64,000 nucleotides of DNA from Schmidtea polychroa (taxonomy: Eukaryota): positions 7,814,001 through 7,878,000 of the forward strand of contig CM097885.1 of NCBI GenBank assembly GCA_044892525.1, in the 5' to 3' direction. Shown in pieces: positions 13,138 to 64,000 of this stretch (its first letter is position 1; every line of letters starts with the position of its first letter). The notes under the pieces were generated by a model. That model saw only the letters and a program-made list of their open reading frames with translations. It made no database searches and was not told the DNA's origin. The translations under genes were made by a program, and so were the position numbers.

Positions 13138-13183
<46 letters not shown>

Positions 13184-19700: not shown

Positions 19701-22223
19701 GAATTAAAGGAGGATTCAAGTGGGTAGAATTGAAGGATATATTTGGTTAGATGTTTAAAAGGGTAGAAATATTTGGTGAGAGATCGGTTAAGATGGGATA
19801 TTGTCGGTTAGATTTAATGAGGGATCGAATAAGGTGGGAAAATATGATCTTTTGAGGGGATATAGTTGGTTAAATTTAATTAAGGATGGGTTAAGATGGG
19901 AATATATGATTTTTTTAATGGTGATGTTGGCAAAATATCAATGTTTTAAGGGAAATTGCAATACATTAGTTATGAATCAATAATAATTATATTGTTTTAT
20001 TAGGTTGTGATTAATGCACAGTAAATTAATTTAGATTTATGTTTTAGAACAATGTTTTATTAAGTAGGGATAATCTATTTACTTGGTTTTGACAATGAAA
20101 ACTTTACAGATAATTGGGATTGATATCAACTTTAAATTATTTTTTATCTTTATTTAGACGGACAACGACAAAAGTTGGAAATATTGATTTAAAACGTCGA
20201 CTAAAGAAAATTGATCTTTATTGGGAGAAATCTATCGGGTGATTTTAATTAGTAATTAAATCGGTTGGATATCGGTAAAAATGATCATTTGAAGAAATAT
20301 GGATAAATTTAATCTTTCTATGCAACTACTCAGTTATATTGTACAGTCAAATTTCAAGCAATATTTATTTTAAATTTCGAGTACAGTGATTAACAAAAAT
20401 TTTATTATAACCGGTTTTATCATTAGATTTTATAAATTATTTAGAGTTAATGATTTTACCTGTTTTATAGGGAAATATTTGTGATAATACGAATTAAAGT
20501 TAGAATTATAGTCATTTAAAGGGGATTTTAAGGAATCTTATTAGTCTGAGGTAAATATATAACCTTTTAAGGATATTTATCGATAAAATACTAATCTTTA
20601 AAGATAGAGTTATTTTTGGGGAAATTTGATGCTTTTTAGATGATTTTATTGAATTATTTGTAATAATATTGATTAAGGGTAGAAATATAGTCATTTAAGG
20701 GATTTTAAGGAATCTTGTTAGTTTGAGGTGAATATATGATATTTAACAAGTACTTATCGATAAGATACTAATCTTTAAAAATAGAGATATTTCAGGCGAA
20801 ATGATTCTTTTTAGATGATTTTATTAGAGAATTCGCTTGAATATACCAATTATTGTCATTTGAATGAATTTTCTGGTTTGTTAGTTTTCTAGTCTCTTTT
20901 GGAATTTAATGATAATTATTTTTATTGTAGATTGATGACATTGATAATTTTAATGAATTTATACTGATTTTTGAATATTTTGAGCATTCAGTCAATCAAT
21001 TTGAGTACATGTATTATTTTTAAAAAAAATAATTAAAATTAATTTTATTTCAATTAATTCATTCAATCTAAATCAATTATCTACTAAATCTTATCTTATT
21101 AATTTATTATCTTAGTCGATTCAACTTGAATGATCAGTATTTTTTTATTTACTGGATGATTAATGAATAGAATTCTTTCTTGTCTATTAATTAAATTTTT
21201 ATGATATTTATTTTGAGTAAATTTAAATTTTTGCAATTATTTAATCAATTTTTACCAAGTTATTGATGTCTTGAGTTCAATTAATTTTCCATCTAATTTT
21301 TCAAGTGATGAGTATTTTTCTTTTAAAGATCAATTTGTTAGTACATAGTTGTTGGTTGTAGGTAGTTGGTTGTTAGTACTTGGTAGTTGGTAGTTGGTAT
21401 CTGATTGACTTTTTAGATTTTGATAAGAAGATAGTGTATGTGATGAAGAATATTTTGTATTTAATTGCTATTATTTTTATGTGTGGTTAGTTGATTGTTG
21501 GTACTTGGTATCTTGTATTTGGTAGCTGGTACAGTGTTGTTATATAGTTGTAGGTTGATAATGCTTAGTAGCTGGTTGTTGTGGGTTGTAAGTGTTTAGT
21601 ATTTAGTTGTTTGAGACCTGGTTGTTAGTACATGGTAGTTAATTAATGAGTAGGTGGTGGTTGAGTGTTACCAATAGCCTTACGACCAGTACCTTTACGA
21701 CTAATACCCTTACGACCAGTACCCTTACGACCAGTACCCTTAGGGGGTCAAAACATCCTGTCGGATAAACTCAGAGTATATATAATAAAACTGATCAACA
21801 ATAAGTATTTATTGAATGTGATTTTTACTTTGCAATAATAAGTCAGTAGTTATCATTTAAAAGAAGATGTTTTTGTAAATTATAATTCATTAGTATTTCA
21901 TTGTAATTTAAATTATTTTGAATTTCACGTGGTGTTTTAAAGTGATTGAGTTGTGGTTTTTTGATGAAAGTCAACATGTTTGTTAAATTTAGATATTTTG
22001 AAAAGGTTTTCTATTGATTGTAATTAAACATATTTTTAAAGACAGATAAAAAATTAATTTAAAAGCATTTCATAAAATACAATAAAGAATACTTAGTTGG
22101 TTGTTAGTAACTAGTTGTAGGTATCTGGTTGTTTGAGAGTTAGTTAGTACGTGGTATCATGTTCAAAGTATTTGTTAGCATCTAGTTAAAAATATTTAGT
22201 AACCGATTGTTGGGAACTGTTGA

Positions 22224-22266
<43 letters not shown>

Positions 22267-25200
22267 CATTAAAATTTCCATTAAAAATTACTTAAAAAAT
22301 TATTCCATAAAAATTAACTTAAAAAATTTTACATTTAAAATTAACTTAAAAAAAAATTTCCATTTAAATTTTCATTAAAAATTACATTTCTCAAAAAAGT
22401 TGGTGGTTATTCAATCTTTTGATAATAAATTTAAAAATCTTACTTTAATTTACTTATTTAGCTTTAATTTAAAATTTGAACCATTGGTTAATTAATTTTA
22501 AATTTTGAACCTTAATTTCCTTAATTTATCCTTAATTTACCTAATTATTCTTTATTTCTTAATTGTACACCATAATTTACTAAACAACTAATTATAACCC
22601 TTATTTTCATATTTAACTAATAATTTCATGTGGTCATTGATTAATTGACGAAGATTTGCATCTAAAATTAACATTGGAAATCCCAGAAAATCTTCATCTT
22701 AAATTAACTTTAACTTTAATATTTTAGACCATTGATTACTTAATTTAAAAATTAGACATTAATTTACTTATTTAACCAATAATTTCATGTGGTCATCTGG
22801 TTGTAAGTACTAGGTATCTAGTTGTTATTACTTGGTTGATGATGCTTAGTACCTGGTTGTTGACGGCTGTGAGTAGTAGGTATCTGGTAACTAGTTGTTA
22901 GTATCTAGTTGTAGGTATCTCGTTGTTGGTGGTACTTGGTAGGTGGTAGCTAGTCGGTTGTAGGTACTTAGTAGTTGGTTAATAATGCTTAGTACTTGGT
23001 TGTATGTACTTGGTAGATGGTTGTAGGTACTTAGTAATTGGTAATTAATGATTAGTACCTGGTTGTTGTTGGTTGTTAGTACTTGGTATCTAGTACCTAG
23101 TTGGTTGATAGTACTTAGTAACTAGTTAATGGGTAGGTGATTGTAGGTACTTAGTTGTTGGTAATTAATGCTTAGTACCTGGTTGATGTTGGTTGTATGT
23201 ACTTGGTAGGTGGTTGTTGGTACTTAGTAGCAGGTAACTGGTTGTTAGTACTTGGTATCTAGTACCTAGTTAGCTGGTTGTAACTAGTTAATGGGTAGGT
23301 GGTAGCTAGTTGGTAGGTGGTTGTAGCTAGTTAATAGGTAGGTGGTTGTAGGTACTTAGTAGTTGGTAGTTAGTTATTGTTGGTACTTAGTAGTTGGTTA
23401 ATAATGCTTAGTACCTGGTTGTTGACGTCTGTGAGTAGTTGGTATCTGGTAACTAGTTGTTAGTATGTGGTTGTAGGTACTTGGTAGGTTGTAGTTAGTT
23501 GTTAGCTGGTTGTTGTCGGTTGTTAGTACTTGGTACCTAGTTGGTTGCTTGTTTTTGGTTGTTAGTACTTGTTAGATGGTTGTAGGTACTTAGTATCAGG
23601 TAACTAGTTGTTAGTAACTAGTTGTAGGTACTTGGTATCTGGTAATTGGTTGTAAGTATCTGGTTGTTTGAGAGTTATTTAGTACGTGGTATCATGTTGA
23701 AAGTATTTGGTAGCAGGTAACTGATTGTAAGTACTTGGTAGCAGGTTGTTAGTAACTAGTTGTAGGTATCTGATTGTTAATACATGTTCATAAGTTACTG
23801 GTTGTTGGTACTAAGTTGTTGGTTTGTTGTTGAATTATTATTAAAATTTGTCTTTGAAAAATATTTCATAGAAATTTTCATTAAAAATTATCTTAAAAAT
23901 TTCCATCTAAAATTATCATTGAAAAATATTTCATAAAAATTTCCATTAAAAATTAACTTAAAAAATTATTCCATAAAAATTTCTATTAAAAATTACTTAA
24001 AAAATTATTTCATAAAAATTTTCATTAAAAAATTTCAATTCTCAAACACCTTCTATTATTTCAACTTTTTGTTAATAAATTTTAAAATCTTACTTTAATT
24101 TACTTATTACATTACTTATTTAAAAATTATTACTTTAATTTACTTATTTAACTTTAATTTAAAATTTTTGACCATTGATTACTTAATTTTAAAATTTGGA
24201 CCTTAATTAACTTTAATTTAATTTTTTAGAACCTTAATTTAGTTATTTGAGCCCATTCATTACTTTAAATTTAAAATTTGAACCATAATTTACTTTAATT
24301 CAAAAATTTGGACCATTATTTACTTTAATTGAAAAATTTGAACCTTAATTTACTTTAATTTAATTTTTAGAACCATAATTTACTGTAATTCAAAAATTTG
24401 AGCCATAATTTACTGTAATTTAATTTTTTAGGACCATTATTTACTTTAATTTAATTTTTTAGAACCATAATTTACTGTAATTCAAAAATTTGGACCATTA
24501 TTTACTGTAATTTAATTTTTAAGAACCATAATTTACTGTAATTTAATTTTTTAGAACCATAATTTAATGTAATTAAAAAAATTTGGACCATTATTTACTT
24601 TAATTGAAAAATTTGGACCATTATTTACTGTAATTTAATTTTTTAGGACCATTATTTACTTTAATTTAATTTTTTAGAACCATAATTTACTGTAATTCAA
24701 AAATTTGGACCATTATTTACTGTAATTTAATTTTTAAGAACCATAATTTACTGTAATTTTATTTTTTAGAACCATAATTTAATGTAATTGAAAAATTTGG
24801 ACCATTATTTACTTTAATTTAATTTTTAGAACCATAATTTACTTTAATTTTTAGAACCATAATTTACTGTAATTGAAAAAATTTACCACGCTTTTTTAGT
24901 GTAGACCACCTTTTTCTCAGGACCAAGGAGACCCACCTTAATTGAACTAAAAAAATCCATGCTTTTTTATTGATAATCGGATTTTTGTATTGAAAATATC
25001 TTGAGACCTTAAATTGCCACTCTTTTTTTAGTGTAGACCACCTTTTTCTATTGAAAATATCCTGAGACCTTAAATTACCATGCTTTTTTATTGATAGTCG
25101 GATTTTCTATTGAAAAAATTTTATTTGTATTGAAAATCCCCGGACCATCGAGACCCCCTCACTATAGTGTGAAAATTCCATGCTTTTTTAGTGGTAGTCG

Positions 25201-26362: not shown

Positions 26363-29149
26363 ATTATAAGGTATGCATGTTGTGTAGATATGCTCTGCTT
26401 GTATGTTTTTACTCACATACTTTTTTCGGTCATTTTAATTTGGAGAATATTGATCTACCTCAGCTGTTTGCATCGAATAATAACATCCATAATACAGGTT
26501 GCTGTGTAAATCAACTACACGAATCATCATTTTTATTATTATTTCTTTTAATCTATAAAGGTGTAAAAACCATTTTAACACTTGAATTTATATTTCATAT
26601 AAATATAAAATCATTTTTAATTTTATACAAAATTTCAATTATAATTTATTGATTTAAAATTTGGGATTATTTCGATTTAAATTGAGTTAGATATATTTTA
26701 AATTATTAGCAAAACAAAAATAATTACCAAAGAAATTTAAGAAAATAATTACGAACATTAACAAAATAGTTTTTAGGTTTTAATAATCTTCTTTTTTAAG
26801 CTTAATCTCCAGAGCCTCGTTGACAACATCGAACCTGTTTGGGCAGGACATTAAATTATACATATTTGCACTTGTCATCGTCTTCCTTAAGCTGCATTTG
26901 ATTACACGCTTTGTTTATTGCCACCTCTCTTTACTTTTGATATTTCACGAAATTCTTTGCATTTGTAAATTAGGGCTTTGACTGTTTTTTTGAGGTTTCC
27001 TAAAACTTTTATATAATTAAAATAATCTTCTCCAGATTCCATGGCGTTGATGATTTTTAATAATTTATGCTTTACTACGTGATAAGATGAAATTGGGATA
27101 CAAACGAATTGTTGAATCCAGCCATATTATGCAAATTTTGAGAAAGTATATCAGAATGGTTACAAAACCGTATTCCAGGAAGTCGTTAGTAAGATCATTT
27201 TCATTCTTGATCAGTGTCTTTGACGCAAAGTTCAATATTTATAAGCAAGTAGCTAAATCTTGTTCCTCATTAATAAAGTAGAGAAAACTGAAATTCCCAA
27301 CGGGGGAATATTAGTTTAAAGAGAGTGGAGAAATGCATAATTTTTAAGCAATGTCATGTCTTTAAAGTTGAATAAAATGAAACTCAATAAAGACATTCGC
27401 GAAATTCGCGCTTGCAACAACCATAAAATAATGAAGTACAAGTAATTGACAACATATTTTCTTGAAATTATATACTTCGTTATTCCATGTTTTTCAGTAA
27501 TCAGTTTACTTTTTAATGAATTAAAACAATCTTTTCCAAGTGTACAACTAAAAATAACCGATATAATATTTCAGAAAAGATTGTGAATATATAATCTATA
27601 TATTTATTTAATATAAAATAATTAATTTGTTTTAAAATCACTCAAAATCACTGTGTGTAATATTGAATTATTGGCGTAGTTGTAAATTGGTAATCAGTTG
27701 CGTTGGTTAATAAAAATGTACGTAAATTGTCTGGAATTCATTATTGTTGTCAAACAAAACACGTTTTGAAGTCAGATAAATAATTGTTGAATTTCACATT
27801 TCACTGACAACCCCAACGACATAGAGAAATATTTTATGAAATGATTTTAAAATTATTATTTAAAAATAAAATGAACATTTTCTTGTGAATTTCAAAATTC
27901 AACACAAAAATATATTTCTTCCACAATGAGAATATGTTCAGCAATTATCTCTAAATCTATCTCTTTAATATAACCAAATTATCCATAATAATAATAAATT
28001 GTAATAATAATTATGGGCAAATTGATGTTCAATTTCGAGCGATTTCATTGGCGGAAAATTCATCACTAGAGTCGACTTTAACATTTTCAATAGAAATAAA
28101 GGAAAATCACGCATTTTTATCTTTGGGGAAATTTTTATCAAGCTTTATCAAAATCAGGTAAAATTTTATATTTATTTGCATATTGTTTTTATTTAAACAA
28201 TTTAAATATTTTTTATTATATATTTAAAGTATTCATTTATTACATTCACTAAATATCATATAATTTGTCTGATATATACTACGATAACTACGATAACCTT
28301 TATACTTTATCAGTGATATAAACTCATAACAAACTATTTGTCATGGGAGATAGTGATACTGTTTACTAAAAGGGTTCAAGTTGGTTTTTGAATTTAATAA
28401 TAAAATATATTGTGACTATTACAGTATTTTGCTCTACCTACTCTGCCTTAAAGTAATATTACTCAAAAATATCACACAAAAACACAGAAATTTAGCAGAT
28501 TGCATACAAAAATATATATATTATTTATAGACAATTAAAGAAATTTTTAAAAGAATTTATAAATGACTGTAAACGGTAAATCGTTTCGTTAAAATTAAAC
28601 TTTAACAACTTTGCATATATGTATATTTATATATAAACTAGCTAAGTACATGTTAAAAAATTGTCAAATATTTATGTTAGAAAATTGATTTCGGATGATT
28701 TTGTGTCATTTATAAAAATTTCAACTAGTCAATTTCAAATGAGTTCAATTTACAATATGCAATCCAAATGTCGCTTAATAATAACATTTCTTAAAATAAA
28801 GTGAAGTAATTTTATTTTGTTCAATTAAAGGATATTTATTTGCCTATGATTGAGTAATTGACCGTAAACAATTTAAAGATTTTATATTTATTTTAATGAA
28901 TAATCCAAAATATATCCAGGGAACATTAACAACTGGTGTAATGTGCCTAATTACTAATTTGAGATTGTAAAGGCGTGGCAAACTTATCCATATTGAAAAA
29001 TGACTCTAAAAAATTGCTTTGCCTATGATGAGCATTTGTCAACATTTTTAATAATAATAACAATAATAGTACTGTTTAAGAGTCATTTTTAAATTTTTAT
29101 ATTATATTTTGGGTAAATGTTTGTTTAAAATGATATGAAATTATCATAA

Positions 29150-29554: not shown

Positions 29555-30932
29555 CACTAAATTTAATTATTATTTCAATTATAATTACCTATATAATTTA
29601 AATTAAAGAAATAGGAAATATTGTTAATTAAACAAGTATCATGTGTTTTTCATTTTTCATTTTAATTAATTGCTGATCATGGGAACGTAAAAAGTGATAT
29701 ATTTAGCGAATTCAATTCATATGGTGATACTGTCAAGAAAATTAGCAAATTCAAACAAAAAATTACATTTAATGGCAATTAGATAACAAGAAATTTAGTT
29801 TTTTCTTTGAACTCTAATTTCAAAATCAATATAATTAATTAAAAAATTGTTTTCAATGAAAATTCCACTAAACCTTCTTCTAATAATTCTTAAACTAAAT
29901 AATTCGATTAATTAAAACAAAAAATAATTCGTTCTCATATCAATTTTCTAGTACCTGTATCGATCAGCAATAATTTGCGAACGATACTTTCATGGAAACG
30001 AAAACCAAGAAATGCATAAAGAACCGTCATTGAGCATGGTTTCAATGTCACTGTTCGTGACTCGATGGAAATTTTTTCATTGGGTTTTAGGGAAATAATT
30101 TTCATTCTATAATTTCTCCTTTTTAATTAAATATTTTAATCACGTAAACTAAAACGGTTTTTATTCGCATTTAACTCGTCGGCATCACAGTAGTTGATGA
30201 TTGAAAACAGAATCATTGGACCATGGGGAACTGACATTTCCCATATAAATATGTGGAGGGGAGAAAAAAATAGCGTCCTCCTAGAATTGTTTTGTTCATT
30301 TAAAACATGACAATAAAAACATATCTAGCTCATTTCATGATGTTATAAAACATGAAAATTTACATAATAAAGATGTAATAATGATTATATTTGACTCCAT
30401 TATGCAAAATTTAATTTAAATTTAATTGCTCAAAAGAATATTTTTCTTATTCTAAACTTTGATATGTAATAATGTGAAATAAAAATAAAATTTGATTTAT
30501 AATATTACCAAAATAGTTTAAAAATTTTCATTCATCAACTTTGATGGACAATGCAACTTTAAGCCATTGCCAGTGACGAGTTCACCATAATGGGTATAAT
30601 GAAGCAACATAAGGCCCGCGGGTCTCTTATTTATATCTAAATTTCAACAATACAATACAATACAATATTAAAACACTAATGCAGATTAAAAAATAATAAG
30701 TGAAACAAACACTCTTTTTTAATGAAAAATACATTTACAAACTGAAATGACATATTTAAAACATCTTAAAACAAAAATATACATATGCTTAATAAAAATC
30801 GAGTCTAATGAGAATAGTTAATCCCTTTTCTTCGTTGATAATGATTTTTAGACCAGGTGTAAATCCGCTGGTATGAATTGTCAAAAGGGATTTAAGATGG
30901 GAATCACTCAAATGGAATCTATAGATTTAATA

Positions 30933-40753: not shown

Positions 40754-40935
40754 CATTTTTAATATTGTATTTATTAAAAAGCTTGACTATGAATCAATAA
40801 ATATATCGATGTTTTTTTATATCTTTACTGATTCATAGTCAAACCTTTTAATAAATAATATGTCAATTGAAAAAAAATCAGTGGTGAAAATTGAGAAAGT
40901 TCTTATAATATTAATATTATTATTCTTATTATTAA

Positions 40936-41010
<75 letters not shown>

Positions 41011-41049
41011 TAAAATAAACAGTACAAGCTTTGTGATACCCAGTGCAAA

Positions 41050-41102
41050 TCCCAATAGTAGACTAGTTTCGAGCTTTTGGCTCTCATCAGTACTATGCGG
41101 GA
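41050..41102 (-). ncRNA. Type I hammerhead ribozyme, copy 1
   Basis: Minus strand: UCCC-GC-AUAGUA CUGAUGA GAGC-CAAAA-GCUC GAAA CUAG UC^ UACUAU-U-GGGA. Full catalytic core, stems I and II, palindromic mini stem III (ACUAGU), GUC cleavage between 41061 and 41060. Confidence 0.93.
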
Positions 41103-41432
41103 GACACGAAGATTTCTCTTCGCGCCAGGTAAGTATACAATATTGTTGATTCAACTCTATTGCATACTTTCCCCGGTACACTGGAAATCACATCGCTTGC
41201 AAAATAGCTTGGTCACAGAAAAAAAAAATTCTGTAAACTTGTAAACATGGCGTATGAAAAATCATAATCACCTCTGCGGACTAAAAAATTAGTCGATACA
41301 CAGAAACTGTTTACAAGTGCATCCGATTACCTTTAGCATTTTTGACTTTCAAAGTAATGGTGTAAAATATTTTTGTCGGATGTCTCACTTGAATAAAATA
41401 AACAGTACAAGCTTTGTGATACCCAGTGCAAA

Positions 41433-41485
41433 TCCCAATAGTAGACTAGTTTCGAGCTTTTGGCTCTCATCAGTACTATGCGGGA
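41433..41485 (-). ncRNA. Type I hammerhead ribozyme, copy 2
   Basis: Identical to copy 1, offset +383. Confidence 0.93.
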
Positions 41486-41815
41486 GACACGAAGATTTCT
41501 CTTCGCGCCAGGTAAGTATACAATATTGTTGATTCAACTCTATTGCATACTTTCCCCGGTACACTGGAAATCACATCGCTTGCAAAATAGCTTGGTCACA
41601 GAAAAAAAAAATTCTGTAAACTTGTAAACATGGCGTATGAAAAATCATAATCACCTCTGCGGACTAAAAAATTAGTCGATACACAGAAACTGTTTACAAG
41701 TGCATCCGATTACCTTTAGCATTTTTGACTTTCAAAGTAATGGTGTAAAATATTTTTGTCGGATGTCTCACTTGAATAAAATAAACAGTACAAGCTTTGT
41801 GATACCCAGTGCAAA

Positions 41816-41868
41816 TCCCAATAGTAGACTAGTTTCGAGCTTTTGGCTCTCATCAGTACTATGCGGGA
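41816..41868 (-). ncRNA. Type I hammerhead ribozyme, copy 3
   Basis: Identical to copy 1, offset +766. Confidence 0.93.
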
Positions 41869-44392
41869 GACACGAAGATTTCTCTTCGCGCCAGGTAAGT
41901 ATACAATATTGTTGATTCAACTCTATTGCATACTTTCCCCGGTACACTGGAAATCACATCGCTTGCAAAATAGCTTGGTCACAGAAAAAAAAAATTCTGT
42001 AAACTTGTAAACATGGCGTATGAAAAATCATAATCACCTCTGCGGACTAAAAAATTAGTCGATACACAGAAACTGTTTACAAGTGCATCCGATTACCTTT
42101 AGCATTTTTGACTTATTATTATTACTATTATTATTAACTTTATAATTATTAGAATGTTTAAAATTTTAGTTTTGTATAATGTTTAAAACAGTCCCTTTTA
42201 CATAGGAACGTTTACTCTTGCCAAAATTTGCCAAAATTCTTTTTATTGAAATTATACTAAAATCGGTTGACGATTTTTTAGAACTTGTATATTTGTTGTG
42301 AAAATAAAAATAACTTATTTTTGTTTTGTGATATTTAATGTGATATTTAATGCATTGAACCAGATAAAGTTTTAAACCCACCGAAATCTATAGGAGTCCA
42401 ATAATTTTATTTATAATTATTATTATTGAAATTAAACTTTATTTGAATAAGATTAAAAAATTAAGCTTGTCAAAAAAATTGTCGTTATCATCCTATAAAT
42501 GCTCTCTTATTAAGTTGACATAATCTGTGAATTTTCCCATTTTCAGATGTCATTCCATGTCGAGAGTTTGCAGAATTGGGAAATATGTATCATTTGTTGC
42601 TAGTAGAAATCCTAATGAAAACCGATTAGCTGGAAAACGAGTCTTGTAAATCCATCCAACTGACAAAAAGTATTTTTCCTTTATCAATGAATCCTTTGCA
42701 ATTTTTTCTTATCAATGCCATTGTGGCGCATTTCATATGGATTGGTAAGTGTCTTTTTTATTTTAATTTGTCTGTATTTTAATTAAGCTTGACTTTGAAA
42801 AGTCTAAAAAATGAAATTAATAGGGAGCACAATCCTCTTTTTTTTGCACGGTATAAAATTTTATTAAAACAATATTAACGGTCCCAAAATTAATCTAATT
42901 TAATCATAAACTATTTCTCTAACACTCAAATTATACCAGGAGCTTAATATTTGCAATATCATATTTTATCATGATAAAAATAATATTTTATAATTGTTAT
43001 ATTTATAACCAATTTTAAGGCTACTTGTATTCCAAGACAATCTTATATATATGAGCATATAAACATATTAATATTATACACAATATATCTTTTTGTTCAA
43101 ACAAAATAAATGGAGACCTTTTTGATATTTTTAATATTTTTACTAAACAATTAAAAATATTAATTTAATTTAAAATATATTTCTATAAAATATATTTTTA
43201 TTTTATCAGCATTTAATACGCATTTCATTGTATGCACACATTCAAACATATTATAAGTATTACTATCAATTAAAACAAAATATTAAAATTATAAAATTTA
43301 ATTAACTATAATTCTATTTTCTGTTTAGAAGTCTATTTAAATATTTGTATTATTCTTTATTTTATTTTATTTATTATTTTAATGAAGAAGACATCAGCTC
43401 AGATTTCTAAATTGAAAACTTAGCGCACTTTTACAGTTTCCTTTTCTTCTACTTTTGTTTAAGAAAAAATTGATTATTTTGATAAAAGTGAATATGTCTA
43501 TTTTTCTTTTTAGGTTTTTAAGTTAAAAAATAGTCAAAATTAATAATTATTATTAATATAATATAACATATATTTACTCTATAAAATGTCTATATAATAC
43601 ATTGTAATGTAACATTAATTTTTTGAATGCAATTACGAATGATAATCATTATTTTCATCCGAGACATATCTTTCACAAACCAACAAAAAGAAACTATATA
43701 GTAATTTTCTATAGTAATAATTTACTATAGAGAAATTACAAATTACAAAATTACAAAATACAAAAATTCAATTGAAAGAATTAAGAAAATTAGAAGTCGC
43801 AAAATAGTCAAACAAATATAATATTAGGAAGTCTCAAAAAGGAATTATTAAAGGAGTAATCCTATATTACAAAAGAGAAAGAAACTACATCGCTACAATT
43901 TCTACTACTATATAATATCAGAAAGGTCAAATAATATACAAATAAAAATTAATTCAACACTAAAAAGTTTTTGTAGAGCCAAATCGTGCAGAAAAATTTG
44001 CAATCCACAATCTTCGTGGTAAATCGCAATTGACCCTTAATTTTTACTGTTCTCCTCAGACAATTGTCTTTCCAAATACTAACATAACAACGATCGTAAA
44101 TAGTATACCGAATCACTATATCCTGTCAATATTATAAAGTATATATTTTTTTTAATAAAGTTGTATTTTTTGATTAAATTCTATTTTATATCTCGGTTAT
44201 CATTGAACATACAAGCACCCGGGTTGTCCCGATACTTTTAACTGGTGACTCCACCGGGTTCTCACAAATTTCTTATTACACACAAATATTACAAACATAA
44301 TATACATAGCTATACAAACATAATAACGCATAACACTAAACTTCATAATATACACAATAAAATAAATAAATACCATTTTCAATTATAAATAA

Positions 44393-45620: not shown

Positions 45621-46929
45621 CTTTATTAAACTTTTACTGTAAATTTGATTTTAACAGTTCTAAATATCAAAAGTTTTACTTGATAATTATTTTTACTTTA
45701 AACGAAATGTTTCCTTTACAAAATACTTTTTTTATTACAATTAATTTATAGAAATCTTTAGAGTATTTTGAAATATATCACGGTCGTTATTGAACCAAAT
45801 GTCTAGTTAGACGTGCAAGTGACTTACAAATTATTTACTTATAGTGAGGCAATAGATTGATTATAATAATTCAAATATGGATTGAAGATTTAAATAAAGA
45901 TAAATGGGGTATCAAATCATTTATTTTTCTTTTTTTTTGTTTTAAAAATTGACATACGTTTTATGTTATTACAATATGGACACGTTACAGATATCAATTT
46001 AAGCTAAAATAATTTTGGAAATAAATTATTCAAATTGATACCTATGATAAAATTGTCAGCGTAGATTTTGCCAAATCCGTTCGCTAACTTGGATTCATTA
46101 ACTTGGATCGAAAAGTCTTTTAGATTATCATTACCAAATCCATCGTGAATTAGAACTTCAATTTTGTTTTGAGCGTTTCTGACATCTTTTTAATAATCGA
46201 TTCCAAATACCTTTCTGCTTCATTAGCCGGTTCAGTCATCCATTTATCAGTTTTAATTAATACATCTTTTTGAGTAAATGCAGTGTCAGGTGAAATTTCT
46301 TCAGAATTTACTGGGAATTTCATCTTGAAATTTCATCATTAGTTTGAATTTCATCGTCTTCGTTAAACATTTCATGTCAATATGTATTTTATTGTTATCG
46401 TTTTCCAATTCTAATTGTTGTGATTCTTCACGTTTTACAATTAAAACCCGTAAATAAGTTTCATATTTCATCATATAATCATTATATTCTGTAACAAATT
46501 CATTTATAACTAATTAAATTAAGCAATTTTAGAAGTAACTTTCAAATTAAATTTTCAAGGTTCAAAACATTTTATTTAAAAAAAATATGAAAAAATAACC
46601 AAATCACTTTTTCAAACAAAAACTCTAATTCCAGAAAAAATTCAATAAAAGTCCAAAAAAACATTGTCCGCGTCTGTGTACAAATTCAAAAACAACGCGC
46701 ACACAGATGCGATAATTAACCTCATGTTTGACCAACTTATATGAGCATAATCCTTGTAAACATCACTTTAAATTATTCTTCGTATAGCTTTCTTGATTCA
46801 TAGCCTTAAAATGATTACCCCATAGTAGTAGGATGTGTCACCACTGGCACATGTCACCTCTGGCACACTACCGCCCCCGGGGGGGGGGGTAAACGACATT
46901 TTTTTTCAAGGTCAAATTTTAAACAAAGA

Positions 46930-47360
46930 CATATGACTCATCAAGGTCATTGAAACAAAGACCATGACTCATCATATGACACATCAAGGTCACTGAAACA
47001 AAGACCATGACTCATCGAGGTCATTGGATGACTCATCAAGGTCATTGAAACAAATACCATGACTAATCCTATGACTCATCAAGGTCACTGAAACAAAGAC
47101 CATGACTAATCCTATGACTCATCAAGGTCACTGAAACAAAGACCATGACTCATCGAGGTCATTGGATGACTCATCAAGGTCATTGAAACAAAGGCCATGA
47201 CTCATTCAAGGTCATATGATGACTCATCAAGGTCAAAGGATGACTCATCAAGGTCATTGAAACAAAGACCATGACTCACTCAAGGTCATATGATGACTCA
47301 TCAAGGTCATATTTTTAAGGTCAAGGTCATATTTTTTAAGGTCAAGGTCATATTTTAGGG
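46930..47360 (+). repeat. TIR tandem array of ATGACTCATCAAGGTCA units, mirrored at ~55050-55500
   Basis: More than a dozen TGACTCA and AAGGTCA motifs per arm. Confidence 0.9.
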
Positions 47361-49806
47361 TCAAACCTTCACCAAAGGGTATCATTCGAAAGGTATTTGA
47401 GAGGTCTATCTAATGGTCATACCCTCGAAGGTGTATGGTGGGTCAATAACTAACAATTGCTATAAAATATTGAATCCCCAAATGATTATTTTATTACAGA
47501 AGAAACCGTGAATGGTATTTGACTGAGTAATTATGATAAATTCATATTTTAAATTTTGATTAAGTCCTTTAATATTAGCAATTTATTATTAAATTTACTA
47601 TTTTACACTAAATATTTCATTTTCAAAAACAAATATTCTAAAAGATAATTTAAGATACATTACTCTTTTCAATGAAAATTAGCATTCAAAGTTAAAAGGG
47701 ACACACGAAAACTTACTCAAATATAACCGAAAGACATAAAACAACAAAACCAAATTCCATTAAATACTTTATAGCAATTGTTAGTTCTTATAATTTCTAA
47801 CTTTAATGAAGATTCTTACCATCTGAGAATAATATTGTTAATTTATCTCGAGTGTTATTAAAATTATCTTTCGACTTTACGCTTCTTACCATTTTAGAAT
47901 AAGATTTGTTATCAAAATTTGTGTTAATTTGGCTGATTTAATTTGATGGAGTTATTGTTAATTCGTTTTATTATATAAATATATACTCCCTCTATGGGTA
48001 CTGTTCACAAATGGTACTGCTCGTAGGGGTACTGGTCTTAAAGGTACTGGTGTGTTTTAATGTTTTTATTTAGGCAAATATTTGGTTATTATTTGGCATT
48101 AAATTCATTGGTAAATTTTTAGAGTTAGCGGGATTTTACTAACATCATTACTAACATGTTTTGTGAATAATTGAAAGAATATTTAAAAAATTAAGGTTTT
48201 AGTGTTAATTCTAAGACAAATTTAATTAATTTCTTGATAATTTGCTATATTTTATTGACTTGTTTTTAAATTTAAATAAAAATTATTTTTAATGACAGTT
48301 AGGTTAATAATTAGAGTTTTTACAATAATCAAGTGATTATTATTTAATTTTTGTAAAAATTATTGTAAAATATACTGAAATTTGTGATTTTGAAAGATAT
48401 ATCACGGTTATAATTGCTATATAATTGGCTGAATCGATGAAGAATTATGATCAATATATTTCATCTCTAGTTAGGTATTTGATGGTAAATGTGGTGAAAT
48501 ATTTGTAGAAAATATTGATTTTAGTGAATTTTGATCTTTTAGTGAGCTCTTACTACATGAATTTAGATACTAAATTATTTCAATGGAAGGATGTCTGTAA
48601 CAATTAAATAAAATTCATATTTTGAAGAATTTTCTATGGATTTTAAGAGAATTGATATATTAAAGTCGGTAGGATTTAGTGATGGTTTAGTTAAGATGGT
48701 AATATATGATTTTTAAAGGGGGGTATTTAAAGGGGTAGAAATATTTAGTGAGGGATCGGTTAAGGTGGAAATGTTTGAAATCTTTATTTAAATCGACAAT
48801 GTTCTTATTGATAAAATATCAAAGGGACATAGTCAGTATTTAGCTATGAATTAATAATAGTTCCTGTGAAATTATATCGTTTTAGAGGTTTATTAGGTTG
48901 TGATGAATGTTATTGCACAGTAATTTATGTTTTAGAATCAATTTTATTAATTAACCATTGTTTTATTAAGTCGTTTAGGGTTAATGATCAATTTACTTGG
49001 TTTTGACAATGAAATATTTGAAATCTTTAGAATTAATTGGGATTGATATCAAAGGTTATTAAATTATTTTATTTAAGAAGTTATTTTATTCATTGTGGGG
49101 AAATATTGAGAAATATTGACTTAAAAGTTGGAAATCGACAACAGCTAAAGAAAATTGATCTTTATTGAAAATATTTTATGATTTTAATTAGATTTCTAGA
49201 AATTAAATCGGTTGAATATTAAGGGTAAAATCTATTGAAGGAATATTGTTATCGGATGGATAAATCTTTCAATGATATTTTACTAAATTACCTTTGTTAA
49301 ATATTATTTTAACTGACTAAGAAAGAGAAAATTAACCAATATTCTTAAATTATTCGCACAAAATATCGCTGTTTTGGTAAAAGGTTACTCAAAATCCCTA
49401 TTTAATAATGTTAAGCATGTATTTCTCACAAAGATATATTACACCCAATGATCATCTCAATAAATTAGAAAAGAATTGTAACCCTATATTTCTAACTAAT
49501 AAGCGCCTTAATTGGTTAAATGATAACTAAATGATCATGTTTCTATTATGACTCCTTTTGCCTCAAACAAAGATAGAAATTTACTCCAAATGATAAAGAC
49601 TTTCTACCAAAATTATCAATGAATATATGTTGTTATTAATGAATATCCATTTCCCAAGAAGTTATATTAACTATTGCAATGAACATTACATGAATAAATT
49701 ACCTATGAAATATTAAATATTCATATCTTACCTTTTGCTAAATATTATTTTAAATGACTAAACATGACAAAGTTAACCAATAAATTAGTCGCTCGAAATG
49801 AGAATT

Positions 49807-51417: not shown

Positions 51418-52075
51418 TTACATGTATATAGTATGATATTCATTAATCAGTATTAAACAGGCTTGACGATTGCGAACATTCTTCTCGTGACACTAAGAAC
51501 AAACAATTACGTGACCACACGGTAAATACAAAACCGAAACTTGATTTTCTTTACAAATTGAACAAGTTAAATACCTTTTCTTAACATCGTTCAGTTTTTC
51601 CGTTAGCTTATTTTCAATCAAGTCGGCTTTTGCTATCCATTCATAAATCAATCTACTATATCCCGTTTTCAACCTTAAATATATGCAACTCCAAAAGTAT
51701 TCATTCAGTGAATCGTTGTTTACCACTGTTTTTTCTAAATACATTAAATAACTAGATAACTTCAAAATGCATTTATCATAATTAAATAAATCAATCAAAT
51801 ATTCAATAGAGGAATGTTTGAAAATTTTTAAAATATTTATGATTTGCTTATCACTGTAAGTATCATGATTATTTATAAAATCTTCAACTGTGTTGTTGAA
51901 AAATTTCAATGAACGCTTATCTTCGGAATAGGTTGGACTTAATATTTCATTATTTCTAGTAGGATGTCCTTGCTATAAATGACATATATAAAAAATATTG
52001 ACAAAATAATAAAGTTACCAAATGTGTTTTGTGATTTACACATTCATATTCAACAGTTTTACTTGTAGAAATCAT
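51418..52075 (-). pseudogene. Spliced homolog of the 5230-5787 RING gene with a premature stop (exons 52075-52019 and 51972-51418)
   Basis: Clear protein similarity (IFKHSSI.YLIDLFNY.KCILKLS.YLM; CSICKENQVSVLYLPCGHVIVCS). TAG at 51495-51493, then the frame continues CHEKNVRNRQACLILINEYHTIYM* with one RING Cys changed to Arg. A 46-nt GT-AG intron (52018-51973) joins MISTSKTVEYECVNHKTHL in frame. Confidence 0.85.
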
Positions 52076-53085: not shown

Positions 53086-55619
53086 TCTTTGAAAATAATT
53101 CTTTGAAAATAATACTTTGAAAAATATTTGATGAAAATGTTCCTGAAATAATGATGAAAATGCTGAAAATCGTGAAAATGTTGAAAATCATGAAATTGAC
53201 GTAGAAATTAAGTTTTATGAATATTTGCAATAATAATCATAATCATAATAATAATAATAATGATAATAATAATAATAATAATAATATTGATTAAAATTTT
53301 GAAAATAATAATAATAATTTTGAAAATAACATCTTCCGCGAGGGCGTTAATATCTTTCCCAATAATAATGATAAATTAAATAATTACATAATCGATAATT
53401 TAAACAAACGTAATCGATAATTAAAACAAAAAAATAATATAATCAACGATTTAAATAAAATAAATTATTATGTAATTGATAATATTTTGAAAATAATAAT
53501 ATGTCCTCGAAAATAATAATAGTTTGAAAATAATAATATGACCTTGAAAATAATAATATTTTGAAAAATAATAATATGACCTTGAAAATACTAAAATAAT
53601 AATTATAATAATATTAATACCCTTGCGACATGTTGAATGTGACCAGTACCTCTACGACAAATACACATAGGGGACAGAATATTTTGTCGGATAAACTCGG
53701 ACTATATAATAATAATAATAATAATATTGATTAAAACTTTGAAAATAATAATTTTGAAAATAACATCTTCCGTGCGGGCGTTAATATCTTTCCCAATAAT
53801 AATGATAAATAAAATTATTACGTAATCGATAATTAAAACAAAAAATTATATAATCAACGATTTAAACAAAATTAAATCATTACGTATTCGATAATTAAAA
53901 CAAAAAATAAAAATATTATTATATAATTAACGATTTAAACAAAATTAAATTATTACGTTATCGATTATTAAAACAAAAATAAACCGCTGGAACAAAAATA
54001 GATGTCTTTGTTACTAAAAATAGAACGACTTTGGCGAGTCATCGGATCAAAAATGTTACTAAAAATATATTCAAAATATTACTAAAAATAGATGTCTTTG
54101 TTACTAAAAATAGAACGACCTTGATGACTCAGCGGCTGAGTCTGTGTTTAAATTACCTTGATAATTTAAACTTGATGATAATAATAATATTAATAATAAA
54201 TTTTGAAAATATCTTCGAAAATAATAATAATACTATTGATAATAATAAATAGAATTAATAATAATAATAATAAATAATAATAATACTATTGATAGTAATA
54301 AATAATAAATCCCATGGGCGCGTCATTGTCTTTGTTCAAAAAATAAATGAGTCATCGATGAGTACTTTTGTATTGCCGTTTGTTTGATATGTATATTACA
54401 AGGTTTGAAAAATTTAAACCTTGTATCCTTAGACTCTTTGACCTTCAAACTTGGACCATGATACTTACATCTCAAATACCTTTTGTTTGATATGTATATT
54501 ATAAGGTTTTAAAATTTTTGAACCTTTTGGACCCTTTCGGTGGTATGACCTTTGAGGGTATGACCATCATACTCACCTTTGTATTACCTAATTTGACATG
54601 TATATATCTATATGTATAATTTTTAAAGGTTTTGGACCCTTTGAAGGTTCAGGACCATTCATAAACCTTTGAAAGTATGACCATGATACTTACATCTCAA
54701 ATACCTTTTGTTTGATATGTATATTATAAGGTTTTAAAATTTTTGAACCTTGGACCCTTAGACCCTTGGACCTTCGAACTCACCATCAAAAGTCCTTTTG
54801 AATGGTATATATATTATATGATTTGAAAAATATTTAATTTTGGATACCCTTTGAAGGTTATTGACCCACCATATACCTTCGAGGGTATAGTCATTAGATA
54901 GACCTCTCAAATACCTTTCGACTGATATATATATATATTATAAAGTTTGAAAAAATTCGAAGGTTTTTGACCCTTTGAAGGTTATTGACAGACCATACAC
55001 CTTCGAGGGTATGACCATTAGATAGAATGATACCCTTTGGTGAAGGTTTGACCTTAAAATATGACCTTGACCTTAAAAAATATGACCTTGACCTTTAAAA
55101 ATATGACCTTGACCTTAAAAAATACGACCTTGACCTTAAAATATGGCCTTGATGAGTCATCATATGACCTTGAGTGAGTCATGGTCTTTGTTTCAATGAC
55201 CTTGATGAGTCATCCTTTGGCCTTGAATGAGGCATGGTTTTTGTTTCAATGACCTTGATGAGTCATCCAATGACCTTGGCGAGTCATCATATGACCTTGA
55301 ATGAGTCATGGTCTTTGTTTCAATGACCTTGATGAGTCATCCAATGACCTTGAGTGAGTCGTGGTCTTTGTTTCAATGACCTTGATGAGTCATCCAATGA
55401 CCTTGATGAGTCATGGTCTTTGTTTCAGTGACCTTGATGAGTCATAGGATGAGTCATGGTCTTTGTTTCAATGACCTTGATGAGTCATATGTCTTTGTTT
55501 AAAATTTGACCTTGAAAAAAAATGTCGTTTACCCCCGCAAAACATCTTAAAGAACAAAGCTTAAAGATAAACATTTGTCATCCTTAATGAAGGTAGAAAC
55601 GTCAAATACATTTAAGCCG

Positions 55620-60058: not shown

Positions 60059-61416
60059 CAAAATAGGAATAATAAGAAATTTATACTGGTTAACCCATTT
60101 GAAAAAAACATTTGACCTCATCGTTGTAGATTAAGAAAATTCATTGCTAAAATATCTCAAAAGTTACCAAAGAGAGTAAAAGAAAAAAAATCCCAATTTC
60201 TCAATCCAAATAAATTAAATAAAGAATTGAGCAGCTGGACATATTTGAATATCAAATCCCCAGTTATTTGTGATTTGAATAATTGCAAGTTTAAAATTCA
60301 ACCTTAATTCATTACTAAATTCCCCAATAAAATCTATCTGTCGAAAAGAAACAACAGTAAAACACGAAGTAAATGAAACAAAATTTGAATTGGCGACAAA
60401 TTTCTATGAGTCGAACTTGATTAAGAAAACGAGAGCCTTAAAACCTAAAACTACTTGTTTTGTTTTAATGGGATAATTAAAAGGAGTACTATTGATTATT
60501 TTCTGTGTTGATCTAATAAATAGGAATGAAGAAAAAACGACTTCAATTTACAAAAAAAAATTATTCAAAAATTTAAATTATTCTGAGTTTTTGTTTTAAT
60601 AAAGTCTTTTTCTTTTCTAAAGATTTTTAAATTAGAAAAATTCAAAAAGTATGTATAATTAATTAAAAATTTAGTATTTGTATTCTTTTGCAAATAATGT
60701 CTGATTTATGGTAAATAAACTAGGGAAAAAACAAAATACTTACATTAAATTGTTATTTTTTAAAATTAAATATCATTAAAATATATTTCTTTAATTGGCT
60801 ATTTGTTTTTTTTTGCGAGTTCATTAAAACGATACTAAAATTATGTTTCTTTTATTTTGAATTATATTTTTGAAATTTTAAATTAAACGAAATAATAACA
60901 TTTTTTTATTGAATCAGGTCTATTAAATAAACAACTGCTGGAGTTTTCGAAATAATAGGGAAAAAAAACTTTTAACAGCAAAATTAAAAAAACCCATTTG
61001 TATTGGTTTTGCAAATATTTGCAACACGATATTTAAACGTTATGTTACATTTTACTTATTAAAAACTTCTATAGTAAAAATACTGTTATATTTTTAAAAT
61101 TTTACTTTTGCCGAGTTTAAAATTTTCCCAACTTCGGTCACTCATTTAAAACAACAATGATAAAAATGTATTTCAATAATATAAAATGTTCTTTTGGTTA
61201 ATGGCTTTTTTATTTTTGTATTTTATTTTCTCGTCAAAGCAAACAATTTTACAGTGAGCAAACTATTTTTATAATAGTAATTTCATTATAGTTATTAAAT
61301 TTTATTTAATCAAACTTAAACCAATGAAAAGACAGAAAATGAATATATTAAGGAAAACCAATAATGGAGTAAAATATTTTTTTTACGGATGTCTAACATT
61401 AAAATAATATAAACAT

Positions 61417-61469
61417 TACAAGCTTTGTGATACCCAGTGCAAATCCCAATAGTAGACTAGTTTTGAGCA
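61417..61469 (-). repeat. Fragment of the 383-bp retrozyme unit, truncated within the hammerhead
   Basis: TACAAGCTTTGTGATACCCAGTGCAAATCCCAATAGTAGACTAGTTTTGAGC matches the unit. Confidence 0.85.
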
Positions 61470-61914: not shown

Positions 61915-62430
61915 TCACTTGAATAAAATAAACAGTACAAGCTTTGTGATAACCAGTGCAAATCCCAACAGCAGACTAGTTTAGAGCTTTTGGCTCTCAT
62001 CAATACTATCAAGATTTCTCTTTGCGTCAGGTAAGTATACAATATTGCTGATTCACTCTATTGAATACTTTCCCCGATACACTGGAAATCACATCGTTTG
62101 CAAATTAGCTTGGTCACAAAAAAATCTGTAAACTTGTAAGCATGGCCTATGAAAAATCATAATCACCTCTGCGGACTAAAAACTTAGTCGATACACAGAA
62201 ACTGTTTACAAGTGCATCTGATTACCTTTAGTATTTTTAACTTATAAAATAATGTTGTAACATTTTTGTCGGATGTCTCACTTGAAATCTTCATGTCTCC
62301 TGCATAGTACTGATGAGAGCCAAAAATAAAATAAATAGTACAAGCTTTGTGATACCCAGTACAATTTCCCAACAGTAGACTTGTTTCGAGCTGTTGGCTC
62401 TCATCAGTACTATGCAGGAGACGCGAAAAT
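61915..62430 (-). mobile_element. Diverged ~1.3-unit retrozyme copy with an internal inverted half-hammerhead
   Basis: Homologous to the 383-bp unit. The HHR at 61963-62009 has core mutations (UUGAUGA, UAAA); the HHR at 62367-62419 has an intact core. An inverted 5' half sits at 62284-62325. Confidence 0.85.
62367..62419 (-). ncRNA. Type I hammerhead ribozyme variant
   Basis: AUAGUA CUGAUGA GAGC-CAACA-GCUC GAAA CAAG UC^ UACUGU. Stem I is kept through a U-G wobble; the stem III palindrome is broken (ACAAGU). Confidence 0.75.
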
Positions 62431-64000
62431 TTATGCTAAAGAAAAATGCTTAGAATTTATATTCAAATAAAATAATTGTAGAACTCTTTAAATAGTAGAG
62501 TTTGCGTAATCACTAACTAATTGTATTGTATTACACAATGTACAATAAAATTGATTATATATTCGGTATTTGGCCTTTGATGCAATATCATATCTAACGT
62601 TATTATGAGGGGTGAGTAATATCATTTAGAAATTGAAAAATTAAGTTTGGTTTTAATAAAATTGAGATTATTAAATTTTGATTTTATTTATAATGTTAAG
62701 AAATTTAGAATTTAATTTAAGATATAATATATAAAATATTTACACAGCATGTCGAAATGTATGTTTGAAATGATAACTTGTAAAGAAGAATTATAGTTAA
62801 ATGAAATTTTCCGCTTCGGTCATTATATGACACCCCCCCTGCTATATTTATTTGTTTTCCAGCCTTTTATAATTTGTTAATATGAGGCGACAAATTAATG
62901 AATTTTTTTCTACAATCTCTTCGGTTTCTTATGCATATATCTTATTATAAAATAATAATAAATATATATAAAAAAATATAAAAATTATTAGTGATATAAT
63001 ATATAGTATAATGTCATATTCTGTCTTTTCAAAATAAGGGGTTATTGTAAAATAAAATTTTTAATAAATATTAAACTCAATGATTGAATTTCCATGATAT
63101 CTTTTAATTATAATTAATACAATTGTTTTAATTAATCAAAAATAATTCCAATCGATTTCCAAAAAGATGAATATAAACAAATTCCCACATTTTCTAAATC
63201 CCTGTCGATGAAGCATAAATTTAATTTACAATAATCCATTTGATGCTAGAATTATCAGAAAAAAATTAATTGCCTTATAGTGAATGTCTATCAAAATTTC
63301 TCCTAAATTTCCACATGTCGATTCTATATTTTTATAATTGAAAAACCATATTTACTATTAATTTAAATTTAAAAAAATATATAATTTCTTTTTTTTTCAC
63401 TCACGTATTGCCTAATTGTTTAAATGCATTCAAATTTATAAACTTCATTTTATAAAGTAAAACAAACTTAATAAAAAGCAATTAGACAAACAAATCCCAA
63501 TTTGTTATTCTGGAATTTGAAATCAGTATAAAATTTCTTGTTTAAATTTCCATTGCTCCATTTGATATTTGGAATTTGAAAATTAAGCCGGTTTGTAATT
63601 ACTTCAGACGACTTAAAAGGTAAATAAGGAAAAATTCAAATAAATAAAAAAAAATCTTTATAAACTGTTACTTTGAAACTCTATCTTCGACTTCAAAAGA
63701 TGATCAATGAAATACAAAGGTTATTTCGGATATAACTAAAAATAATTTATAGAAAAAAAGTATTAACCGTTTGCGACGGATTTTGTTCCAGACGTTCTAC
63801 AATGTATAATGGCCAGCTGTGCTGGCCAAACTTTAAAAAAATCATACCACGATATCGGGCATTCGTATACTAAAAGATTTTATGCTAAAAAATAATATAT
63901 TAAAATACTACTTATTAAAATTAATTCCATCCGCAAACGATTAAATCAAATTTAAAATTAAAATCTTACACTTTTATACACAGAACATCTGCAATAATTA

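Follow-up and report, generated by a model that had tools for sequence, protein, structure and literature searches.

The array at positions 41011–42114 (minus strand) of the window, which is the whole 64,000-nt stretch analysed, is very probably a recent insertion of a non-LTR retrozyme, whose minus-strand RNA would self-cleave, circularise and be copied by a Penelope-like reverse transcriptase (RT). The array is an exact period-383 run of 1104 bp with 721 of 721 overlapping bases matching, i.e. 2.88 units at 100% identity, which bears out both the exact 383-nt hammerhead spacing and the non-integer (~2.9-fold) tandem arrangement given in the preliminary description. Read along the hammerhead strand, the array begins at 42114, partway through a unit that is cut short there, and finishes at 41011, 50 nt beyond a cut site. 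The cut positions place two predicted cut-to-cut monomers of 383 nt at 41444–41826 and 41061–41443 (minus strand). The units have a GC content of 37% and form a pure tandem without an LTR layout; the listed stop-to-stop reading frames in them do not exceed 79 aa, and the four unit frames scanned gave no Pfam hit. A target-site duplication (TSD) flanks the array on the plus strand (40995–41012 and 42113–42130), and the left copy ends the (ATT)n tract at 40909–41012. Both the tract and the duplication had been described, the latter as 16 bp, and we refine the length to 14–18 bp: an 18-mer is common to both flanks, of which 2 nt per end could be element sequence. Within this 18-mer the ATT tract is broken by ACT, and the word has only two further sites in the window, compared with 467 pure (ATT)5 words. 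One such duplication encloses the entire non-integer array.

The three minus-strand type I hammerheads proposed previously (41055–41096, 41438–41479, and 41821–41862) all align to Rfam model RF00163 with 27.4 bits (E = 4e-4) and with every core position matched, confirming the CUGAUGA, GAAA, and GUC core. The covariance-model search thus recovers the match, but at a score under the curated gathering score of 34, and for this reason the whole-window scan at gathering level returned no matches. C17 falls at 41061, 41444, and 41827 in the three motifs, which confirms the cut position predicted earlier, 41061/41060. The extended stem I (6 bp, one bulged C and 5 bp more, reaching 41816–41868 in the third hammerhead) and the 4-bp stem II are as described. 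In stem III, the palindrome ACUAGU is present, but the two pairs assigned to it would close a 2-nt loop, so that in the monomer the stem is in practice likely to be one pair plus a palindromic tetraloop. Between two molecules, ACUAGU is computed to form a 6-bp duplex of −4.8 kcal/mol.

Comparison with the assembled contigs of four out of 24 public sequence runs points to a very abundant, high-copy and dispersed family. None of the 24 is listed as RNA carrying the array, which says nothing for or against expression. In X6, a DNA-type run, 5768 contigs match the compared stretch and lead into many different flanks. Their summed depth, which is not a copy number, reaches ~1.2 million on the unit compared with 23.7 on the unique flank, for which the contig ends at 42178 and positions 42106–42144 were left out as repeat. 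Forty X6 contigs exit the unit at 41781, 4 nt from the equivalent of the array 3′ end, into long, heterogeneous AT-rich sequence, and this common exit point suggests an RT start shared among family copies. The status of the other runs (X9, X17, and X20) as RNA is a guess. X9 yielded just three contigs, one of which spans the head-to-tail junction, agrees with the array at all 285 aligned nt, and carries the minority alleles of the array at 41865 and 41872; this is a weak hint that the subfamily of the array is the expressed one, and tandem DNA also yields such junctions. The allele frequencies in X17 are genome-like (87% variant at 41865), so this run may be DNA or reflect broad transcription.

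A second locus of the family, at 61.4–62.4 kb, is absent from the preliminary description. It comprises an older, diverged stretch (61924–62432, minus strand) with one unit at 88% and a damaged hammerhead, within which lie a second hammerhead at 91% (62327–62432; core intact, stem III non-palindromic) and an inverted hammerhead half of 42 nt (62284–62325), as well as a short fragment at 61362–61468 (minus strand). Together with the many flanks of the X6 contigs, it shows the family to be multicopy and dispersed. A related retrozyme family exists in a second organism (organism B). The only block shared with it at 80% or more, defined by contig comparison, is 41799–41902 (minus strand), spanning a U1-like motif, a hairpin, the hammerhead, and 28 nt of 3′ sequence, in which the hammerhead core and the palindrome are retained and loop II is altered. 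Within the species, none of the 42 hammerhead positions varies compared with 16 of 341 elsewhere (Fisher p = 0.15; 0.14–0.15 for excess conservation of the core); the proposed test of core conservation is therefore not significant at this level, but the cross-species comparison supports it. As the stem III palindrome has no variant at ≥5% in X6 nor in organism B, dimer-only or dimer-best cleavage is plausible. In the available text of PMC7229834, efficient monomer cleavage is reported for most invertebrate retrozymes, and eight of nine predicted dimer elements in a Xenopus preprint are given as without in vitro cleavage.

The predicted fold of the minus strand is unusually stable. The monomer at 41061–41443 has a minimum free energy of −132.8 kcal/mol (z = −9.35; 0 of 100 shuffles equally stable) with 266 of its 383 nt paired, and the circular form −128.7 kcal/mol (z = −10.4 against 60 shuffles), compared with −101.2 kcal/mol for the plus-strand circle. 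Five flanking control windows gave z-scores of −0.82 to +1.65. Formation of stems I and II in the circle is predicted to cost only ~3 kcal/mol, and in each unit stem I is separated from a U1-like motif by a 10-bp hairpin capped with a GAAA tetraloop (41869–41892, minus strand). Natural variants support the minus-strand fold: 11 of the 16 sites that vary at ≥5% in X6 are paired in it, and all seven transitions at paired sites preserve the pair (56% expected, p ~0.017), compared with none of four on the plus-strand fold. Counting against the structural reading, the four paired-site transversions all disrupt pairs, as do two of six majority changes of organism B, in the GAAA hairpin.

The data thus show a tandem anatomy with hammerhead motifs, a duplicated target, a high copy number, and structural constraint on the minus strand, and since every defining feature that can be tested is present, as the proposed architecture implied, we assign the array to the animal non-LTR retrozymes. 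In the mechanism that we favour, a promoter within the preceding unit would most likely drive minus-strand transcription, with the U1-like motif as its start, or the transcript would alternatively arise by read-through, and the transcript would self-cleave into 383-nt monomers that are then ligated into circles. A Penelope-type endonuclease would nick the (ATT)n tract, and the RT would start at a fixed internal site ~46–50 nt 3′ of the cut, run 2.9 times round the circle and drop off, which would account for the identity of the units, the 5′ truncation and the 14–18-bp duplication. The Poseidon protein, from a Penelope-like element (PLE), is described as cutting 5′-ATT-3′ and beginning reverse transcription at fixed internal sites (PMC11167929). 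Reverse transcription round a circular template fits these data. The copy runs through three cut sites, which excludes a cleaved linear monomer as template; the circle itself we infer, because an uncleaved multimer could also template the array.

Indeed, the same element may have given rise to the array from an uncleaved linear multimer or by local duplication, with circles as a by-product, an account that we regard as possible but not probable. According to the available text of PMC11167929, hammerhead cleavage is dispensable for insertion and uncleaved RNA is the dominant PLE substrate in vitro, so the circle is not the sole possible template; oligomeric uncleaved transcripts are described as PLE templates in PMC6765202, and unequal crossover is considered as a route to local tandem expansion in a preprint on vertebrate retrozymes. 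Against this account, the overlapping bases of the array are identical throughout, although only 1270 of the 5768 X6 contigs are ≥99% alike, a single TSD surrounds the whole non-integer array, and a template with three competent hammerheads would be expected to cleave itself. It is highly improbable that we are dealing with satellite DNA of an ordinary kind, or with an artefact of repeats collapsed or polished in assembly, in which the hammerheads are dead relics. Perfect repeat identity can arise from assembly consensus, no contig in the compared runs bridges array and flank, and the 62-kb copies have decayed, but the TSD with its diagnostic interruption, the independent X9 contig that is identical across the junction, the core invariant in two organisms, and the strand specificity of the pair-preserving variants all argue against this.

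No Penelope partner, RT or RT-GIY-YIG ORF was found in or beside the array, nor elsewhere in the window, and the array, in which no RT and GIY-YIG ORF lies between pseudo-LTRs, is not an autonomous PLE. ARAGORN found no tRNA genes in the window, a search that a decayed tRNA-derived Pol III head, of the kind in hammerhead SINEs of the Schistosoma type, would escape. Downstream on the plus strand lies a putative host exon (42547–42744). A Brix-like fragment (Pfam E = 0.005, under the cut-off) had no match in a homologue search, a splice-site scan gave 11 weak candidates, and a search for Gag-like sequence returned nine protein matches. A sigma-70 promoter scan, which has no bearing on a eukaryote, did not rise above chance (4 compared with 2.0).

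Each unit also contains a 13-nt motif (41890–41902, also 41507–41519 and 41124–41136, minus strand), absent from the preliminary description, that matches the 5′ end of U1 snRNA. It starts 76 nt upstream of each cut, and its plus-strand complement is a perfect 5′ splice donor (CAG/GTAAGT). The match to the human U1 start as printed in PMC3936765 covers nt 1–13 only. None of the 13 positions varies at ≥5% in the family, and the motif is the 5′ edge of the block shared with organism B, which has U1 nt 3–12 and differs at nt 2. In the circle, fold prediction has an upstream arm (41930–41942, minus strand) pairing with the motif and sequestering it, 10 of the first 12 motif nucleotides being paired at a probability of at least 0.97; three of the 13 arm positions vary in the family, and the arm has no alignable counterpart in organism B. 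The unit is not a U1 snRNA gene or a SINEU-type head, as the stem-loops, the Sm site, and an Rfam U1 match (searched up to E = 10) are lacking. Two candidate U1 loci were retrieved for comparison, and neither proved to be U1. Other likenesses, namely an octamer or U1A-loop-like word after stem I, an insect PSE-like word upstream, Pol III boxes, and spliced-leader RNA, are too short or mere candidates, and we set them aside.

The motif may serve as an snRNA-type start site, mimic U1, or act as a splice donor in antisense. It may mark a built-in transcription start, for which the tandem layout could supply each unit with an upstream promoter. Tentatively, we suggest that the beginning of a U1 snRNA gene may have been taken up by a retrozyme lineage, giving a circle-forming element that uses the promoter of that gene and releases a U1 mimic. 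Every unit would then bear an snRNA-type promoter for the next, and the RNA would begin with the splice-site-reading arm of U1. Cleavage would give a capped 76-nt RNA, whose free U1-like arm could base-pair with the 5′ sites of splicing, together with a circle of 383 nt that keeps the U1-like arm folded away. Such an element would be a selfish circular RNA with a borrowed spliceosomal gene promoter, retained in at least two species.

Two other explanations of the motif have to be weighed against U1 capture. It is rather unlikely that 41890–41902 is a plus-strand donor, used in antisense or derived from a PLE-like pseudo-LTR, and not a U1-type start. The U1 nt 3–12 shared with organism B, which differs at nt 2, are essentially the complement of the donor consensus, PLE pseudo-LTRs contain introns, and the possible exon at 42547–42744 means that plus-strand read-through could occur at the locus. 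However, the described Penelope intron lies on the hammerhead strand and ends at helix I, whereas the donor here is on the opposite strand; the U1 match extends to nt 12–13, past the donor consensus; structural selection acts on the minus strand; and no spliced joint from this donor is among the 15 joints listed out of 50. It is also conceivable, if doubtful, that the likeness to U1 is due to chance, the motif being conserved only as an arm of the circle hairpin or as a binding site for a helper RT. In keeping with this, the motif is mostly paired in the predicted circle, the likeness was noticed post hoc, Rfam has no U1 match, and four scans of sequence collections gave no other family with the same layout. 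The counts expected by chance per unit on both strands are only ~1e-5 for the 13-mer and ~5e-4 for the 10-mer, however, and the motif is invariant where its pairing partner varies and is kept by organism B without an alignable partner.

Elsewhere, the layout of U1 motif plus hammerhead was matched 22 times (2 in viral, 19 in metagenome, and 1 in prokaryote-genome sequence), which we treated as chance: none of the 21 that were scored has more than two stem II pairs or resembles the unit by BLAST, and the remaining one shows no hammerhead by eye. The family-specific pattern occurred in 0 viral contigs. As the scanned collections are poor in animal DNA, these scans are weak evidence of absence. 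We found no report of a U1-like motif in retrozymes in the literature, and the available text of PMC7229834 does not mention one; supplementary retrozyme sequences might show it to be common. Motif words had 0 matches in 11 files of the PMC3088659 supplement. Hammerhead words had 0 matches in one file of the PMC8557442 supplement, where two donor-word matches were unrelated, and thus revealed no sequence link of the array to a PLE.

As a retrozyme the array is ordinary, yet it is a clean specimen: its identical units, intact TSD, ATT target, and shared 3′ end make it testable whether a Penelope-type RT copies the circle and where the RT starts. The U1-like feature matters more than the retrozyme itself. 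What drives the strong transcription of animal retrozymes is unsettled, with no apparent promoter according to the available text of a review (PMC7761336) compared with an snRNA-type promoter in newt satellite 2, and the conserved U1-like 5′ end narrows the search for capped starts to a single base, 41902. If the released 76-nt piece does pair with splice donors, host splicing would be directly affected by a selfish element of very high copy number.

Among known systems, the comparisons being limited to the available parts of the sources cited, the crocodilian SINEU (Kojima 2015, PMC4494074) is likewise non-autonomous and has a U1- or U2-derived 5′ head. In contrast to the array, which matches U1 over 13 nt only, its heads derive from snRNA genes, and the account of it mentions no hammerhead and found no promoter. 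PLE pseudo-LTRs and the Poseidon PAc mechanism (PMC4209133, PMC11167929, PMC8557442, bioRxiv 10.64898/2026.07.22.740005) share with the array the palindromic dimer-type hammerhead, the partial-tandem layout, an ATT or microsatellite target, an RT start at a constant internal position 3′ of the hammerhead, and inverted truncated pieces, here at 62284–62325. Unlike PLEs, the array is without an RT-GIY-YIG ORF, and its hammerhead has the canonical form, with 6 bp in stem I and 4 bp in stem II, rather than the minimal PLE form. Newt satellite 2 is a ~330-bp tandem hammerhead repeat that cleaves as a dimer and has an internal snRNA-type Pol II promoter (Coats, Zhang and Epstein 1994, as cited in PMC2220036; Pol II transcription in PMC6765202). 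It is therefore a precedent for a promoter within the unit, whereas in the array no promoter element was identified and just a putatively transcribed U1-like 5′ end is present. The closest match is to the metazoan non-LTR retrozymes (Cervera and de la Pena 2020, PMC7229834), described as tandem 150–450-bp repeats that have type I hammerheads, GC below 50% and TSDs >4 bp, lack an ORF, and form a highly self-paired monomer. The array resembles them in unit size (350–390 bp in mussel), type I hammerhead, low GC, long TSD, thousands of copies, and a self-paired monomer whose hammerhead is accessible, in line with the low predicted cost of stems I and II in the circle. It differs in its family-specific sequence, and its stem III is nearer to the weak palindromic amphibian type (HHR_Amex1) than to the monomer-active coral type.

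The array keeps an exact period of 383 bp across 41011-42114 (1104 bp, 2.88 units) with 0 mismatches among 721 overlapping bases, as the preliminary description had claimed. It lies at one end of an (ATT)n tract, and an 18-mer with an ACT interruption flanks it on both sides (40995-41012 and 42113-42130). Because 2 nt are ambiguous at each end of this shared 18-mer, the target-site duplication is 14–18 bp, which refines the 16-bp duplicated flank described earlier. The 18-mer occurs at two other places in the window, and pure (ATT)5 words number 467.

A covariance-model search (RF00163, the Rfam type I hammerhead model) recovered the three minus-strand hammerheads described before, one per unit (41055-41096, 41438-41479, and 41821-41862), each at 27.4 bits (E=4e-4), where the model's gathering cut-off is 34. 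The cleavage-site nucleotides (C17) are at 41061, 41444, and 41827; therefore, three cuts would free two 383-nt monomers. The stem III palindrome ACUAGU was confirmed and gives a 6-bp duplex between two copies (-4.8 kcal/mol), but the two-pair form would require a 2-nt loop to close within one monomer. The linear monomer fold has a z of -9.35, with 0/100 shuffles as stable, and the circular fold a z of -10.4; control folds of five flanking windows were unremarkable. The plus-strand circle folds 27 kcal/mol weaker than the minus-strand circle.

Related copies are a decayed locus at 61924-62432 (88–91% identity to the unit) and a fragment at 61362-61468. The unit junction of the decayed locus holds an inverted 42-nt hammerhead 5′ half (62284-62325), at the same unit position as the end of the main array; truncated fragments in inverted orientation are likewise found in Penelope-like insertions. 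Four of 24 listed public sequencing runs were aligned to a single monomer together with 586 nt of the flank on its right, with contigs in all. For X6, DNA by our guess, 5768 contigs aligned; summed depth, which is not copy number, reached ~1.2 million in the unit versus 23.7 in the flank, and indicates a very abundant family. Sixteen unit positions vary at ≥5% in X6, leaving out four flank sites and rows below 5%. None falls inside the 42-nt hammerhead, which is not significant by itself (p=0.15), so the within-species excess conservation of the core that had been set as a test did not reach significance in this run. Of these 16, 11 fall at paired positions of the predicted minus-strand circle, where pairing survives 7/7 transitions (56% would be expected to preserve it, p ~0.017) and is lost with 4/4 transversions. 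In the plus-strand fold, 0/4 transitions at paired positions preserve pairing. Selection thus acts on the hammerhead strand. Among the loose ends listed, 40 X6 contigs depart from the unit at 41781, 4 nt from the equivalent of the array's 3′ end (41777), into long AT-rich stretches that differ among contigs (agreement 0.52, median 216 nt), from which we infer a shared end of independent insertions. X9, RNA by guess, gave just three contigs; one spans the head-to-tail junction without a difference, and at 41865 and 41872 it shares the minority alleles of the array, which hints weakly that the array's subfamily is the expressed one. Allele frequencies in X17 are genome-like and say little.

X20, from organism B, gave 163 contigs (92 of them <90% alike), aligned almost entirely within 41799-41905. 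Six of the eight pieces listed cover ~41799-41900; the other two are near-identical to the window at depth <5 and may be carry-over. None of the listed changes touches the hammerhead core or palindrome. Three of the six majority changes are unpaired (two in loop II), one keeps its pair, and two break pairs, both in the hairpin upstream of the hammerhead.

The preliminary description did not include a 13-nt match to the U1 snRNA 5′ end: the hammerhead strand reads ATACTTACCTGGC 76 nt ahead of each cut (41890-41902, 41507-41519, and 41124-41136, minus strand), and the decayed locus retains 11 nt of it (62028-62038). According to PMC3936765, the first 11 nt are the U1 5′ end required for 5′ splice site pairing, and a primer printed there extends the match to nt 13. 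The likeness was spotted post hoc; by composition, ~1e-5 occurrences of the 13-mer and ~5e-4 of the 10-mer are expected per unit. The remainder of the unit is unlike U1, with no Rfam U1 match up to E=10. In X6, 0/13 motif positions vary at ≥5% versus 3/13 in its circle pairing arm; the block shared with organism B ends at U1 nt 3, 13 contigs diverging at 41900 (consensus agreement 0.66), and nt 2 is changed there. Since the motif is invariant while its partner arm varies, and the organism B block reaches nt 3, the motif sequence itself seems constrained. An snRNA-type start or U1 mimic remains one reading, and in the predicted 76-nt product (from 41902 to the cut) the first 10 nt are mostly unpaired. 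Chance together with structure remains another; the predicted circle buries the motif, with 10 of its first 12 nt paired at ≥0.97. A plus-strand splice donor likewise remains, as the complement reads CAG/GTAAGT. The same motif–hammerhead layout gave 22 matches in viral, metagenome, and prokaryote contigs, all taken as chance.

At 42547-42744 (+) lies a candidate host exon whose acceptor and donor sites are both good, and ~42590-42690 of it aligns with an organism B contig having a 3-nt insertion; if the exon is real, the array is intronic, with its hammerheads antisense to that gene. Elsewhere, a 6.8-kb inverted repeat (97.9% identity, 10517-17288 and 18116-24917, ~830-bp spacer) is rich in short tandem repeats and has no long ORFs. 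A PolB-like coding region recognised by eye at 912-4855 (+), in two overlapping frames (1061 and 257 aa) with only a weak Endonuclease_7 match in Pfam, is probably a Polinton/Maverick. Related RING-finger ORFs occur at 5230-5787 (+) and 51493-51972 (-) (DNA 83% alike over 498 bp), and a 367-aa Gag-like zinc-knuckle ORF at 6949-8052 (-) has nine homologues (27–56% identity). Pfam matches below cut-off are a Brix domain at 30139-30324 (-) (E=0.005) and a Sleeping Beauty-type HTH at 26905-27126 (-) (E=0.0007). A nested 21/43/95-bp tandem repeat element has two inverted copies (78%) at 46885-47450 and 54981-55536. All long ORFs in the 64-kb window lie away from the array and none had an RT match, so the array is no autonomous Penelope-like element (PLE).

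Array anatomy, target duplication, abundance, and strand-specific structure are established; beyond these, the minus strand would be transcribed, and the predicted hammerheads would self-cleave with dimer assistance. Preprint 10.64898/2026.07.22.740005 describes 8/9 predicted Xenopus dimers as without cleavage. A host RtcB-type ligase may then join the monomer, a reaction that PMC7229834 shows in vitro with retrozymes of the axolotl and of mussels. A Penelope-type protein would make a target-primed copy into DNA, which fits the Poseidon protein, described in PMC11167929 as cutting 5′-ATT-3′ and starting reverse transcription at fixed internal sites. The cDNA would begin at a point 50 nt 3′ of one cut site, then cross three of them, for which a cleaved linear monomer cannot be the template, whereas a circle or an uncleaved multimer can. 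That the units are identical within a diverse family favours the circle, but uncleaved RNA was the main PLE substrate in PMC11167929.

All testable defining features of metazoan non-LTR retrozymes, as set out in PMC7229834 and the preprint, are found in the array, and 41011-42114 is very likely a real, probably young, insertion of this already known kind. The element has one conserved extra feature, the U1-like motif, which could, though this is rather doubtful, set it apart from known retrozymes; no report of a U1-like 5′ end in hammerhead repeats was found in the literature within reach, older subscription papers and key supplements lying beyond it. The review PMC7761336 says that retrozymes seem to be promoterless, while newt satellite 2 has been described, as cited in PMC2220036 and PMC6765202, with an snRNA-type promoter inside its repeat. 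SINEU has U1-derived heads, according to PMC4494074, whereas the array unit has only the 13-nt U1 likeness.
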